The notes: generated by a model from the sequence alone, not told the origin. Positions 11,967-57,616 are shown, counted from the first letter of the stretch. The stretch: 64,000 nucleotides of DNA from an uncultured bacterium (GCA_963843285.1 CAWJJO010000004.1:5521-69520), one strand, 5' to 3'. A program made the numbers and translations.

Positions 11967-12010
11967 GTGTAAGAAAGGGGATGTGGAGATGAGGGAGATG
12001 TGGGAATGGG
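11967..12010 (+). repeat. G-rich palindromic-repeat family, single G-rich arm (GTGTAAGAAAGGGGATGTGGAGATGAGGGAGATGTGGGAATGGG)
   Basis: Direct match to the family consensus. Abuts the gene fragment 11699..11958. Confidence 0.8.
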
Positions 12011-12037
12011 TTCACCGTCTTATTGTAAGATCTGAAT

Positions 12038-13376
12038 ATGACAGATGCGGAGCGGCCGTCAGGTCCACCGGGTCATTTCCTTTTCGGCAATCTTCCGGAA
12101 TTCGGACGCGACATCCTTGGCTTCTTCACCAGATGCGCGCGCGAATACGGGGATATCGTGAAAATCAAACTGTTCCGGTACGATGCGTTTCTGATCAATC
12201 ATCCTGATTACATTGAGCAAGTTCTGGTTACAAATAGCCGCAGCTTTCAAAAGCACAGTTTTTTCTGGAGACATGTGCGTGCAATTTTTGGAGAAGGATT
12301 GCTTACAAGCGAAGGCAATTTCTGGCTCCGCCAACGCCGCATGTCGCAGCCCTTTTTCCACAAAGAACGGATTGCAGGGTACGGAAAATTGATGGTCGAT
12401 TTTGCCGAACGGATGCTCGCGGATTGGAAAGATGGCGAAACGCGCGACATCCACCAGGAGATGATGCATGTTGCATCGCGGATTGTTACGAAAGCATTGT
12501 TCAGCACCGATATCGACCGGGACATGCGCGAAGTGGATGAAGCTTTCAACATAGCGATTCAGGAAGTCGCCGTACGGTTCCGGCGGCCAATTCGAATCCC
12601 TGAATTCCTGCCTCTTCCAGGAAATCTCCGGTGCAAAAAAGCTGTGAAGCGGCTGGATGCGTTAATGTACCGGATCATTCGCGAGCGTCGTTCCGCAGCA
12701 GATGGGACCGATCTGCTATCCATGATGTTGCAGGCGCAAGACGAAGATGGAACTCGAATGACCGATACGCAGCTGCGCGATGAGGCCGTAACATTATTTC
12801 TCGCGGGTCATGAGACTACAGCGATTGCGCTTACCTGGACGTTTTACCTGTTATCGCAAAATCCCGAATCGTTAGCGAAACTGGTGTCGGAACTCCGAAC
12901 GGTTCTGAATGGACGTTCCCCGCAGGCCAGCGATATACCGAAATTGCGTTACACGGAAATGGTCATCATGGAATCGATGCGTCTTTATCCGCCTGCGTAC
13001 GCGTTTGGGCGCGAAACGATCCGCGATTGCCGGATCAATGGAATCGAGCTGCCGAAAGGAACCACGGTTTTCATGAGCCAGTGGGTCATGCATCGTGATG
13101 CGCGGTATTTCGATGAGCCGGATGAGTTTCGTCCCGACCGATGGGCGGATGGTCTGGCGAAAAGGCTCCCGCGATTTGCGTACTTTCCTTTCGGCGGCGG
13201 TCCCAGACTCTGTATCGGCAATTCTTTTGCAATGATGGAAGCGGTTCTGATACTCGCAACCGTTGCGACAAAAATTCCGCCTGGAGCTTGTCCCGAATCA
13301 TCCGGTAGAGCCCTTCCCCGCAATTACACTCAGGCCGCGTTTCGGTATGAAGATGACATTGCGAAAGAGGGTGTAA
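12038..13376 (+). CDS. cytochrome P450 (apparent +1 frameshift in A5 run at 13270-13274)
   Basis: FGGGPRLCIGNSFA heme-Cys loop and AGHETT I-helix. The ORF track runs to 13555 through the repeat. Frame 3 after the A-run gives the canonical P450 C-terminus KFRLELVPNHPVEPFPAITLRPRFGMKMTLRKRV*, ending at TAA 13374 inside GTGTAAG. Confidence 0.75.
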
Positions 13377-13412
13377 GAAGGGGGATGGGGAGATATGGGG
13401 GATGTGGGGATG
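13371..13412 (+). repeat. G-rich palindromic-repeat family, single arm; its TAA is the predicted P450 stop
   Basis: GTGTAAGAAGGGGGATGGGGAGATATGGGGGATGTGGGGATGG. Confidence 0.8.
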
Positions 13413-13490
13413 GTGTGTTCGAATTTGCTGAAAAGAGAAAATTATTGTCGCGCAGTAGGGCGTTGCTTATGGTGTCGTTTTTGACGGACT

Positions 13491-13536
13491 CTGATGTGTG
13501 GCTTCCACGCGCACACATCAGATGTGATTTTCCTCT
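13491..13536 (+). terminator. possible intrinsic terminator hairpin downstream of P450
   Basis: 10-bp perfect stem CTGATGTGTG / CACACATCAG with an 11-nt loop, followed by ATGTGATTTTCCTCT. Confidence 0.35.
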
Positions 13537-54946: not shown

Positions 54947-55138
54947 GATACTTCAATCTGCAAGTTGCGAGCCACGGCGAACTCTCTCGGTGGGTCGAAT
55001 CTGTGGGTGTAGACAATTGGTACAGTGCAAACGAAATGATCACGCCGAACAGCCCGCTACCCTACTTCGATCGCTCCAATGTCTATAGTATAGCGCAATT
55101 ATGCAGGGTAGATCAGGGAAATCCGTTCTCTTTTGTTT

Positions 55139-55969
55139 CTACGATAGGCCGGACAGTACAGGGATCAGCACATTTGGAATGAAGTCCACGAGAAAGTGGG
55201 TGATCATGTTCGCCTTCAGGTCGCGTCTCTTCAAATAGAGAATCGCAAGGATCGCGCCGGCGACAAACGAAATGATGATTCCACCGATTCCCTGCCGGTA
55301 ATGAAATACGCCAAAGAGGATCAGCGGGATCAGGAAATAGACAATCCAGTTGCCGCTGATTTTTTGCAGTCGTTCTATGATATAGCCGCGGTAACAAATT
55401 TCTTCAACAATTCCCGCGCGCAAAACCATAAACGACATCACCCACAATGAAACGTTTTTGTAGCGTCCGACATCCGACCCCTGCCCGAACGAGATGCCAA
55501 CTTTGCTGAAGATGAAAAGAAGGATCGCCAGTGCCACGCCCACAGGCACAATTCCAATGAGCCCCCAAAGAATGGACTTGCCCCAGTTCCGCGAATGAAT
55601 TCCAATCGAGTCCAAACCCAGCTTTTCTCCTTTAAGAATGAGCAGAATCAGAATTCCTGCCACTGCAAAAACGGACAATTCTTTTCCCATCACAAAAAGA
55701 TTCGTAAAAGGACTATCCGGAGCCAATGATTGGAAAATGAAGATCACAAGCGGAGCGCCGAAAAGAGCAAGAGCGAGTCCGACCCATGTGATGGCAGGTG
55801 TCGTTGAAGTTCGTTCCATATTGTTACGAATCATACACCAGGAAATGAAATCCGCGTGCCGAACCTTTCTTTGCGATCTTGGCGTCTTTGCGAGAAATCC
55901 TATTCCCCCAATACCGCGTTGCGTGTTTGCACGAAATCTGATGAGATAATCGGCATATGAAACACACAA
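55139..55969 (-). CDS. CPBP-family intramembrane metalloprotease (CAAX protease/Abi); likely start Met at ~55837
   Basis: Multi-TM; EEICYRGYI (EExxxR) and FGVFH (FxxxH) motifs. Confidence 0.7.
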   Translation of the reverse strand: MCVSYADYLIRFRANTQRGIGGIGFLAKTPRSQRKVRHADFISWCMIRNNMERTSTTPAITWVGLALALFGAPLVIFIFQSLAPDSPFTNLFVMGKELSVFAVAGILILLILKGEKLGLDSIGIHSRNWGKSILWGLIGIVPVGVALAILLFIFSKVGISFGQGSDVGRYKNVSLWVMSFMVLRAGIVEEICYRGYIIERLQKISGNWIVYFLIPLILFGVFHYRQGIGGIIISFVAGAILAILYLKRRDLKANMITHFLVDFIPNVLIPVLSGLS

Positions 55970-57471
55970 TCCTCATTCCCGTGCTGTTGATCTCTGCTTT
56001 GTCATTTTCCTTCGCCTTCGCGGATGAAGTGCCGCCGGCGGAAAAGGAGAAAGCGGCTCCTGCTCCGGTTGAATTTGTGAGCCATCACAAAATCACGATC
56101 GGCAAGGAAGCGCTCGACTATTCGGCGGTTGCAGGTGAGATCTTTGTGAAGGACGAAGAAGGAACTCCGCAGGCAAGCATCTTTTCTATTTCGTATGTGA
56201 AGGACGGAGTCGATCGTCCCGAAAACCGGCCCGTCACTTTCCTGTTTAACGGCGGACCCGGATCCAGCGCGGTGTGGCTGCATCTTGGCGCATTCGGACC
56301 GAAGCGAGTCGCATTCTCAAACGATCCGGTAATCCCGGGTGCTCCGCCGTATGAGCTGACGGACAATCCAGATACACTCCTGCGTTTTTCCGATCTTGTT
56401 TTTGTGGATCCGGTCGGCACCGGTTACAGCCGCGCGCTTGGCAAGAAAAAGGATGCGGATTACTGGGGTGTTGATGAGGATTCGGCATCCATCGCGCAAT
56501 TCATCCGAAGCTATCTCACAAAAAACAAGCGATGGAATTCACCCAAGTTTCTTGCAGGTGAAAGTTATGGAACGATACGCGCAAGTGTGCTCATCCGGGA
56601 TCTGGAACTGAAGCTTCTGGACAGTGTGGCGTTTGACGGTGTCATTCTGCTTTCCACCGCGCTGGATGTGCGGACGTTTGTGACGGCCGGGCCAGGAAAC
56701 GAGCTTCCCTATGTGACCAATCTTCCCACATTTGCCGCGACCGCTTACTTTCACAACGCGTTGCCGGAAAAGCCCGCCGATCTGGATACTTTTTTGCGTG
56801 AAGCGAGAGAGTTTGCAGGCGATGAATATCTTGCAGCGCTATTTCAGGGAGATTCACTTCCGGCAGAACGCGCGGCGCAAATCGCTCAGAAGCTACACCA
56901 CTTCACAGGACTGAGTGTGGAGTATCTGCAGCGAACCCATCTCAGAATCGACAGCGGTCGATTTTTGAAAGAGCTTTTGCGCGCCCGCGGCCAGACGATC
57001 GCGATCCACGACACCCGATTTCTTGGGAAGGATCCGGACGATGCCGGTGAAGGAGTTCAATTCGATCCGTTTCTATTCGGAATCGCCGGACCGTTTGTTG
57101 CAACGATCAACAGCTATCTTTCCGGCGATTTGAATGTCAAGATGGAACGTCCGTACGTCGTGTTTTCTCTAGGAGCGAGCAACAGCTGGAGGCGAGCCGG
57201 CAACAACAACGCCGCATTCGACGGATTTCTCTACACTGCTCAGTATCTTGCACAGGCAGCCGCTACCAACAAGGATTTTCGAGTCTTTGTCGCCAGCGGC
57301 TTGCACGATCTGGCAACGACTTTCTACGCAACCGAATACATCTTCGATCACAGCGGAATCCCGAAGAAGTCAGGTGACGCTGAAGAATTATTACGGCGGT
57401 CATATGATGTACATGTACGCGCCTTCATTGAAGCAGATGTCCGAGGACATTCGGTTATTCATGCTGGGTAA
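55957..57471 (+). CDS. secreted S10-like serine carboxypeptidase family protein
   Basis: Signal peptide; GESYG nucleophile elbow (LAGESYGT). Family call moderate. Confidence 0.6.
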   Translation: MKHTILIPVLLISALSFSFAFADEVPPAEKEKAAPAPVEFVSHHKITIGKEALDYSAVAGEIFVKDEEGTPQASIFSISYVKDGVDRPENRPVTFLFNGGPGSSAVWLHLGAFGPKRVAFSNDPVIPGAPPYELTDNPDTLLRFSDLVFVDPVGTGYSRALGKKKDADYWGVDEDSASIAQFIRSYLTKNKRWNSPKFLAGESYGTIRASVLIRDLELKLLDSVAFDGVILLSTALDVRTFVTAGPGNELPYVTNLPTFAATAYFHNALPEKPADLDTFLREAREFAGDEYLAALFQGDSLPAERAAQIAQKLHHFTGLSVEYLQRTHLRIDSGRFLKELLRARGQTIAIHDTRFLGKDPDDAGEGVQFDPFLFGIAGPFVATINSYLSGDLNVKMERPYVVFSLGASNSWRRAGNNNAAFDGFLYTAQYLAQAAATNKDFRVFVASGLHDLATTFYATEYIFDHSGIPKKSGDAEELLRRSYDVHVRAFIEADVRGHSVIHAG

Positions 57472-57481
57472 GTGAACCAGG

Positions 57482-57616
57482 GTGTAAGAAGGGGGATGTG
57501 GGGATCGGGGGGATGAAGCCGCCGCAGCGCCGAAGGCGCTTCTCTCTAAAAAAATATTACCAAACAAAAAGCGATCCCCCTTATCTCCCTTATCTCCACA
57601 TCCCCTTTCTTACACC
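57482..57616 (+). repeat. G-rich palindromic repeat, complete 135-bp element with internal GC hairpin in spacer
   Basis: GTGTAAGAAGGGGGATGTGGGGATCGGGGGGATGAAG...(CAGCGCCGAAGGCGCTTCTCTCTAAAAAAA)...GATCCCCCTTATCTCCCTTATCTCCACATCCCCTTTCTTACAC. Confidence 0.9.

Follow-up and report, generated by a model that had tools for sequence, protein, structure and literature searches.

The repeats described here lie in a 64,000-nucleotide stretch of DNA from an uncultured bacterium (GCA_963843285.1 CAWJJO010000004.1:5521-69520), referred to below as the window (W), by which the whole of that stretch is meant. They are confirmed as a genuine dense family of short G-rich inverted-repeat elements and, on balance and with moderate confidence, they are best explained as relics of a family akin to transposable elements of the miniature inverted-repeat type (MITEs), whose intact members have IS66-type ends, and which now act as recombination break points. 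The family is previously undescribed; no paper contains the arm sequence and a literature search on MITEs in Acidobacteria gave nothing specific. The evidence lies in the anatomy of the elements, in family members in other genomes that retain MITE structure and target duplications, in the asymmetry and shared orientation of the copies, and in the breaks of homology that fall at them when the window is compared with a close relative (R).

The repeating unit is an arm of approximately 42 nt that consists of a GTGTAAGAA head, four NNGGRGAT units of 8-9 nt each and a T-rich stretch. A profile hidden Markov model built from the copies and run with nhmmer finds 17 solid arms (E 4.5e-13 to 4.6e-5); together with three fragments they all lie between 11.9 and 57.6 kb of the window. 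Fourteen of the solid arms are on the + strand (starts 11967, 13371, 15831, 16657, 18525, 25107, 31979, 34060, 35823, 37959, 43337, 44694, 49860 and 57482) and three on the - strand (outer ends 26551, 49965 and 57615). The first-pass annotation had listed 16 copies, of which the 14 + strand starts are borne out at mostly the same coordinates (34069 should read 34060, and 44695 should read 44694), but 38961 and 45825 are mere fragments (E 0.16 and 0.56); the third fragment is a degenerate - strand head at 38051-38075. The 42-mer given there matches exactly only at 15831 and 16657. Repeat finding groups 14 direct copies at 61-100% identity and also recovers their inverted partners, and the degenerate core GTGTAAGAARGGRGATNNGGRGAT occurs 10 times in the window and never in 100 shuffles. 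GGRGAT hexamers number 85 on the + strand and 34 on the - strand, and their clusters 15 and 3, respectively. Similarity between copies starts abruptly at GTGTAAG. A search of the repeats against Rfam gave no match at the gathering score or at E values up to 1, no tRNA is present in the window, and the family has no match in the viral contigs or in the plasmids searched.

The elements of the window, and one insertion that interrupts them, are as follows (z, fold stability against shuffled sequences).

11967-12009, + strand: solo L-type arm upstream of the P450 gene; nhmmer E 2.3e-12; full palindrome at the same site in R.
13371-13412, + strand: solo L-type arm at the 3' end of the P450 gene, whose frame reads through it; left boundary of a 20.7-kb segment missing from R.
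15831-15908, + strand: L-type arm (15831-15872), loop and 11-nt right-arm remnant atatcccgaca (~15897-15908).
16657-16698, + strand: solo L-type arm; 46 nt shared with the 15831 arm at 100% identity.
18525-18566, + strand: solo L-type arm with T-rich loop remnant; profile match.
25107-25167, + strand: left arm and left loop half of a palindrome split by an insertion sequence (IS); first 20 nt within a 1676-nt duplication.
25168-26493, - strand: IS4-family insertion sequence, outside the repeat family, inserted in the loop; 18-bp inverted repeats and 9-bp duplication.
26494-26551, - strand: right loop half and R-type arm of the split palindrome; profile match, arm class by sequence.
31979-32012, + strand: degenerate solo arm; nhmmer E 4.9e-8.
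34060-34101, + strand: solo arm with a canonical G-quadruplex (G4) motif, ending 6 nt before the ATG of a 573-aa gene; right boundary of the 20.7-kb segment missing from R.
35823-35864, + strand: solo arm, the head of which provides the 573-aa gene with its stop codon; W/R homology stops at the 3' end of the arm.
37959-38075, + strand: full palindrome in degenerate form, with the L arm at 37959-38000 and the decayed head of the R arm at 38051-38075; z -3.4.
38961-39004, + strand: short fragment, arm head and one unit; mini-hairpin; nhmmer E 0.16.
43317-43386, + strand: solo arm (43337-43386); ahead of it, at 43318-43326, a lone reverse head TTCTTACAC.
44694-44735, + strand: solo L-type arm 6 nt past the serpin stop codon; ortholog in R; W/R homology stops at 44732.
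45825-45868, + strand: decayed arm fragment; nhmmer E 0.56.
49860-49965, + strand: complete 106-nt palindrome of L arm, AT-rich loop and R arm; z -4.8; its halves are in different elements in R.
57482-57616, + strand: complete 135-nt palindrome with a GC-rich mini-hairpin in the loop; z -8.7.

The elements are thus short and non-coding, with terminal inverted repeats and many copies, the complete palindromes being 106-135 nt long with inverted arms of about 42 nt. The two complete palindromes that had been reported, at 49860 and 57482, are both right, and the degenerate one at 37959-38075 is a third. Nearly all copies are intergenic, as had been claimed without exception; the 13371 arm, however, lies inside the P450 reading frame and the 35823 arm contributes the TAG with which the 573-aa gene ends, in R as well as in the window. 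The P450 gene (12038-13555, +, 505 aa) has lost its stop codon to a deletion of about 12 nt and so reads through the arm; its ortholog in R (445 aa) ends with a TAA that precedes the arm by 7 nt.

The two arms of an element are not equivalent. L-type arms read GGGGGAT-GTGGAGAT-NGGGGGGAT-GNGGGGAT and R-type arms GGGRGAT-AAGGGGAT-GATGGAGAT-GTGGGGAT, and alignment scores are higher within the classes (L-L 23.5, R-R 24.7) than between them (L-R 17.6). The same distinction is seen between the A and B sides of intact MITEs in other genomes. The two arms of one element are no more complementary (18.1) than arms taken from different elements (17.5). Judged by these alignments, the ends of the element are genuinely a left and a right one, and it is the sequence of each end that is conserved, not the hairpin. 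Two arm classes without hairpin co-variation fit the recognition of double-stranded DNA by a protein and speak against a role in RNA. Solo arms, which are almost free of C, are no more stably folded than shuffled sequence (z -0.3 to +0.5, with a single arm at -1.9). The G-quadruplex potential that had been described as strong is real but modest, with a canonical four-tract motif in 4 of 14 + strand arms and G4Hunter scores of 1.2-2.2; these four are the only canonical motifs of the window and none lies on the - strand.

Outside the window, the core pattern is found in species-representative genomes at more than 107 loci among the matches listed. Arms occur in at least 14 other uncultured metagenome-assembled genomes (MAGs), among them JAZDOR, JAHIZN, JAZDLP, MHDQ, JBKKAT, DAISKN, JBKBRF and CAVYSN, which are labelled as Acidobacteriota, Armatimonadota, Planctomycetota, Nitrospinae, Spirochaetota or plain "bacterium". 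The loci range from 40 to 70% GC, and over this whole range an arm core of approximately 24 nt is conserved. In the low-GC genomes JAZDOR, JAHIZN, JAZDLP and MHDQ the arms form the subterminal part of elements of 135-230 nt, and are therefore not the true ends of the larger element, a point missed by the first-pass annotation. An intact element reads GTAA(G/C)CGTTCAGGTA, arm, AT-rich loop, reverse-complement arm, TCTTGATGTATAGG, CTGAACGGTTAC, and is flanked by 8-bp target duplications that include GAGATTTG, GGCATTTT, AAATTATC, CAATTTCA and AAAAAATA; the duplications are clear for the JAZDOR and JAHIZN copies. At one locus (L044) intact elements stand on both sides of a housekeeping epimerase gene. 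Members of the IS66 family have inverted repeats that begin with GTAAGCG and generate 8-bp direct repeats (PMC11946415). Ends of this type together with 8-bp repeats are found in the four MAGs, and the window head contains GTAAG. The GTAAGCG-type ends and the 8-bp duplications indicate that the family includes MITEs of the IS66 type, so that the resemblance to REP/MITE-like elements suggested earlier holds in the strict sense for the relatives, and the window repeats would presumably also be of IS66-family parentage. Like known IS66-derived MITEs, the intact elements are non-coding, carry GTAA(G/C)CG...TTAC termini and 8-bp duplications and measure 135-230 nt, and the family as a whole consists of small, intergenic, high-copy elements that break short-read assemblies. 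Many MAG copies lie at contig ends and the window genes are found on short Logan contigs (1.4-3.2 kb); if the MITE reading holds, the repeats would explain the poor short-read assembly of these genomes. The window copies are unlike IS66-derived MITEs in that they lack termini and duplications, consist of long G-rich arrays of 8-9-nt units, are mostly one-armed and co-oriented, and have no cognate IS66 transposase that could be found.

The comparison with R connects the elements to rearrangement. R comprises two contigs, L108 and L109, that together amount to about 22 kb and whose shared genes are 87-94% identical to the window in DNA; L108 is the sole contig obtained from a 29-mer scan of metagenome contigs, and L109, with an overlap of 99.7%, was reached via the serpin homolog. 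It carries six palindromes, five solo L arms on the + strand and one solo R arm on the - strand, all in the same L-to-R orientation as in the window (12/12). Homology between W and R ends at the 3' ends of L arms (13411, 35864 and 44732), just past the 11967 arm (12010, where R has the full palindrome), within the 49860 element (49879, 20 nt into the L arm, and 49918, in the loop) and adjoining arms (43415 and 16639). Arms therefore mark the junctions of rearrangement between close relatives, which had previously been missed. The largest difference is an indel of 20.7 kb: W 13412-34059 lies between two direct arms, and in R one arm is all that stands between the P450 gene and the 573-aa gene. 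This single arm is a hybrid, with a 5' end like that of the 13371 arm and a 3' end like that of the 34060 arm. Another indel measures 1.7 kb: the 49860 palindrome of W joins the left flank of the first palindrome of R to the right flank of the second, which leaves 1.7 kb in one genome alone. The order of blocks also differs without inversion, from P450...serpin, M4, MBL in W to M4, ...P450...serpin..., MBL in R. Within W itself, a duplication of 1676 nt (23451-25126 and 32404-34079, 98.2% identical) ends 20 nt inside arms; it covers the N-terminal double-kinase part of a 2143-aa kinase-AAA-SBP gene and leaves a truncated 558-aa copy. A further duplicate of 240 nt (96% identical; 11697-11936 and 18617-18856) corresponds to the 3' end of the 2143-aa gene and to an orphan fragment left of the 11967 arm. 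Compared by eye, orthologous arms of W and R show roughly 85-90% identity, which is near the divergence of their flanks; over the block containing the serpin gene with its arm, identity is 89.7%. The 15831 arm is identical to the one at 16657 and yet differs from its ortholog in R, which argues for local gene conversion and not for purifying selection. More distant relatives (67-82% protein identity) have no arms in the 7-21 kb available from each.

The orientation of the copies is the second unusual property. It had been stated that the G-rich arm is on the + strand in every case; this is true of every unpaired arm of the window, but the three arms on the - strand each serve as the right arm of a palindrome. 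The strand bias that had been seen regardless of the direction of flanking genes is real and stronger than described, since the elements are asymmetric and about 16 in the window and 12 in R are co-oriented, corresponding to roughly 17 independent sites. Their placement relative to genes is variable and includes the ends of + and of - strand genes as well as divergent and convergent spacers. The right arm has been lost in about 10 of the approximately 16 window elements and the left arm never; such elements keep the left arm and a piece of the T-rich loop, and in some cases also about 10 nt from the start of the right arm (as at 15897-15908). Among the surviving - strand heads, AAGAAAGG replaces AAGAAGGG in three of four. 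Full palindromes are co-oriented by L/R type as well, so that arm loss alone is insufficient to account for the orientation. Conserved L/R asymmetry and uniform orientation with loss of one arm indicate a process that distinguishes the strands, be it replication or directional recombination. The co-orientation may arise from a replication-linked asymmetry (oriented loss or selection), from an array built by integron-like recombination, or from mobilisation as single-stranded DNA.

The loops of the palindromes also act as insertion targets. As had been noted, one copy is split by an insertion sequence (25168-26493), which has 18-bp inverted repeats CAGTGCTGTCCGGTTAAA and encodes an IS4-family transposase (ORF 25181-26446, -; DDE_Tnp_1 + DUF4372; NF033592, 276 bits). 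Its 9-bp target duplication TTATTGAAT, at 25159-25167 and 26494-26502, sits in the AT-rich loop between the arms at 25107 and 26551. With inverted repeats and a duplication of its own in the loop, the IS was inserted into a pre-existing copy; the repeats being unrelated to its own 18-bp ends, it is ruled out as their parent. In R, an unrelated second MITE family lies in the loops of, or adjoining, three of the G-rich elements. This MITE-like family (ccgcagaatatccaacaaggaact...gttcgatattggatattcggactt) is found at L108 2447-2560, 7171-7350 and 10857-10985, and in the window only as a 27-nt fragment at 15124-15150.

It is proposed that the repeats derive from a non-autonomous transposon of the DDE type, that is, a MITE, and, to judge from other transposons whose subterminal sites are likewise repeated, the L and R arms would be the transposase-binding arrays of its left and right ends. 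The family is intact and recently mobile in some related uncultured genomes, whereas in this lineage the outer termini and mostly the right arm would have been lost, leaving immobile copies; this order of events, decay from intact MITEs, is itself conjectural. About 17 co-oriented stretches, each offering 40-100 nt of homology, persist in intergenic DNA. Recombination between them, together with breaks in the AT-rich loop, would have given rise to the deletions or insertions, duplications and block translocations that distinguish close relatives, and local gene conversion would keep neighbouring arms alike. Two known situations offer partial parallels. The Correia elements and "minimal mobile elements" of Neisseria are a dense MITE family that provides portable homology for the exchange, deletion and insertion of gene blocks; they differ in sequence and host phylum, have TA duplications and show no strand co-orientation. 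Breakage at palindrome centres, as in palindromes cleaved by SbcCD and in human palindromic AT-rich repeats, likewise places junctions and insertions at an AT-rich centre and leaves half palindromes, as putative breakage would here, but the loss of right arms only would require an additional strand asymmetry.

Several observations weigh against a MITE ancestry of the window copies. Neither GTAAGCG nor GTAACCG is present within 120 nt of any window arm, and target duplications are absent around the copies of the window and of R, JBKKAT, DAISKN and JBKBRF; recombination between copies would, however, erase them, so that duplications would no longer be paired. The sharp edge of similarity at GTGTAAG is unlike the uniform neutral decay of a longer element. 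Random DDE transposition does not account for the uniform orientation or for the ten-to-nil loss of right arms. In two other genomes, where 13 adjacent pairs of intact MITEs were scored, orientation is random (7 concordant and 6 discordant pairs), so that oriented insertion is not general to the family; genomes of the window type had too few multi-copy loci for the same count. In a small search space, the window and the fetched loci, neither an autonomous element nor a transposase of the IS66 type was found. Clustering of 881 open reading frames (ORFs) from 107 loci, all against all, gave no enrichment of any neighbouring gene; the families recovered were all widespread ones, for example kinases, response regulators, HEAT and ABC proteins. 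The history may also have run in reverse, with the bare palindrome as the original form that was later captured by an IS66-type MITE in one lineage.

Alternatively, the 46-kb stretch could be a modular array in which co-oriented L-loop-R sites, either of recombination or of replication polarity, separate the gene modules and are cut and rejoined at the loop in the manner of integron attC or dif-module sites; a recombinase would bind the L and R arms, exchange would occur in the loop, and excision of modules as circles followed by re-insertion would keep all sites in direct orientation. Such sites would be co-oriented whatever the direction of the genes, as is observed, and would explain a block order that changes without inversion, homology that ends in or beside elements (several times at the loop or at the end of an L arm), the halves of the 49860 palindrome that lie apart in R, and an L/R asymmetry kept across genomes. 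Most spacers hold one or two genes, toxin-antitoxin-like and accessory genes among them, and in this the stretch recalls attC arrays and CALINs (clusters of attC sites lacking integron integrases), in which co-oriented imperfect palindromes of about 60-140 nt separate mostly single-gene accessory modules in a hypervariable region. Despite this module-like layout, no integrase, tyrosine recombinase or other recombinase was found in the window or the R contigs, and the attC core sites RYYYAAC and GTTRRRY are absent from the arms, which have GTGTAAGAAG and CTTCTTACAC at their outer ends; GTAAGAA has two mismatches to GTTRRRY. Half sites, which make up some 10 of the 16, are unexpected under a site-specific system, the modules are large (up to 6.6 kb) and often decayed, with gene fragments among them, and crossovers such as the one 20 nt into the head fit homologous recombination in the best-conserved stretch. 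The same arms also occur elsewhere in a classical MITE with duplications and random orientation. Such an array is unlikely; if it were real, it would represent integron-like shuffling of modules with non-attC sites in Acidobacteria and other uncultured lineages, driven by a putative recombinase or a strand-specific single-stranded-DNA mechanism, and the IS66-type MITE elsewhere would be a secondary capture of such a site. Mobilisation as single-stranded DNA by a Y1/HUH transposase, with insertion into the lagging-strand template orienting the copies as could be expected of REPIN/RAYT or IS200/IS605-like systems, is also unlikely. Like REPINs (doublets of repetitive extragenic palindromes, REPs), the dense, abundant and intergenic copies are inverted-repeat doublets of some 100-135 nt that form long hairpins, accompanied by decayed singlets, strongly biased in orientation and without target duplications. 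The missing duplications are nonetheless weak evidence, as recombination between copies would scramble them. Furthermore, the nearly C-free arms are not themselves palindromic and form no internal hairpin as a REP does, solos folding like shuffles; the head GTGTAAG carries neither a GTAG nor a CGTC tag, paired arms do not co-vary as a hairpin, no Y1_Tnp protein was found in the window, and the 8-bp duplications and GTAAGCG ends of the relatives indicate a DDE mechanism.

Selection by the host on arm orientation is less probable still: the G-rich strand would serve as a polar signal of the FtsK/SpoIIIE type, or form a G-quadruplex tolerated on one strand only, and arms facing the wrong way would be purged. 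The head AAGAAGGG resembles the SpoIIIE recognition sequence of B. subtilis, GAGAAGGG, and its replacement in - strand heads, the confinement of unpaired arms and canonical G4 motifs to the + strand and the one-sided loss of right arms in the window would all be in keeping with this. Outside the arms, however, the octamer occurs once on the + strand and twice on the - strand, showing no skew in a 64-kb window that is far too little sequence for the purpose, and the window has no detectable replication-associated GC skew (0.005 +/- 0.007, after separation of coding-strand and replication components) that could serve as an anchor. Orthologous arms that diverge about as much as their flanks argue against strong selection on sequence, and R retains a solo right arm on the - strand. 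An action at the level of RNA, as terminators, stabilisers of mRNA or decoys for ribosomes or RNA-binding proteins, is very improbable. Many arms do begin 0-53 nt past the stop codon of a + strand gene, full palindromes give very stable hairpins, and the GGAG-containing units resemble Shine-Dalgarno sequences. The orientation is nevertheless independent of gene direction, with the C-rich complement downstream of six - strand genes, no run of T follows any hairpin, and Rfam has nothing similar. The earlier suggestion of a terminator or RNA-stability role is accordingly rejected, given that solo arms are unstructured (z around 0), the two arms do not co-vary, the relation to gene ends is inconsistent and the gene at 45921-49277 has a genuine canonical terminator of its own beside one arm fragment.

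The host is probably a Blastocatellia-like Acidobacterium of soil type, as the closest named homologs of the window proteins are from Blastocatellia and Acidobacteriota MAGs. The genes encode a P450, peptidases M24, M13, M4, S8 and S10, a serpin, Ser/Thr kinase fusions, an ankyrin/PQQ protein and an ADOP-family permease (TIGR03434, 953 bits); Pfam and NCBIfam scans of the window ORFs gave no recombinase, Y1 transposase or IS66 protein. An arm-free operon of low GC content (0.466) at 601-9604 (+) encodes an SNF2-type helicase, an AIPR abortive-infection protein, an N6/N4 DNA methylase and a ResIII helicase, and looks like a recently acquired restriction or defence island. Between the IS and an arm, at 26609-31684 (-), a GC-rich (0.57-0.62) GH94/glucoamylase gene, its type being that of a cyclic beta-1,2-glucan synthase or cellobionic-acid phosphorylase, is split into seven or more frameshifted ORFs; it is a pseudogene whose composition is apparently foreign. 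The terminator beside the 45825 fragment (45880-45904, -; GGGCCGGTGCTCTTTGCACCGGCCC and a T run) follows the M4 peptidase gene. A small repeat, CTTTGCGATCTTTGC...GAGAAATCCT, is present at 55863-55901 and 57614-57652 (87% identical), where the latter abuts the right end of the 57482 palindrome, and similar CGCAAAG-rich flanks adjoin elements in JBKKAT and CAVYSN loci. An unrelated near-perfect palindrome of 143 nt at 61183-61325 (GAGGCTGTTGAAAAATGCA...TGCATTTTTCAACAGCCTC; -89.9 kcal/mol, z -8.8) is located just upstream of a DUF4097-like gene and may be another palindromic element; within that gene, direct repeats with a 54-nt period (61797-61984) probably encode an 18-residue protein repeat.

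The repeats are unusual in combining arrays of G-rich 8-mers, a conserved L/R asymmetry, strict co-orientation, the loss of arms on one side and an association with junctions. If they are indeed relics of IS66-type MITEs, the family would be widespread in uncultured bacteria of soil and sediment, and remnants of transposons would serve as seams along which blocks of accessory genes are shuffled between genomes that are 87-94% identical in the DNA of their shared genes.

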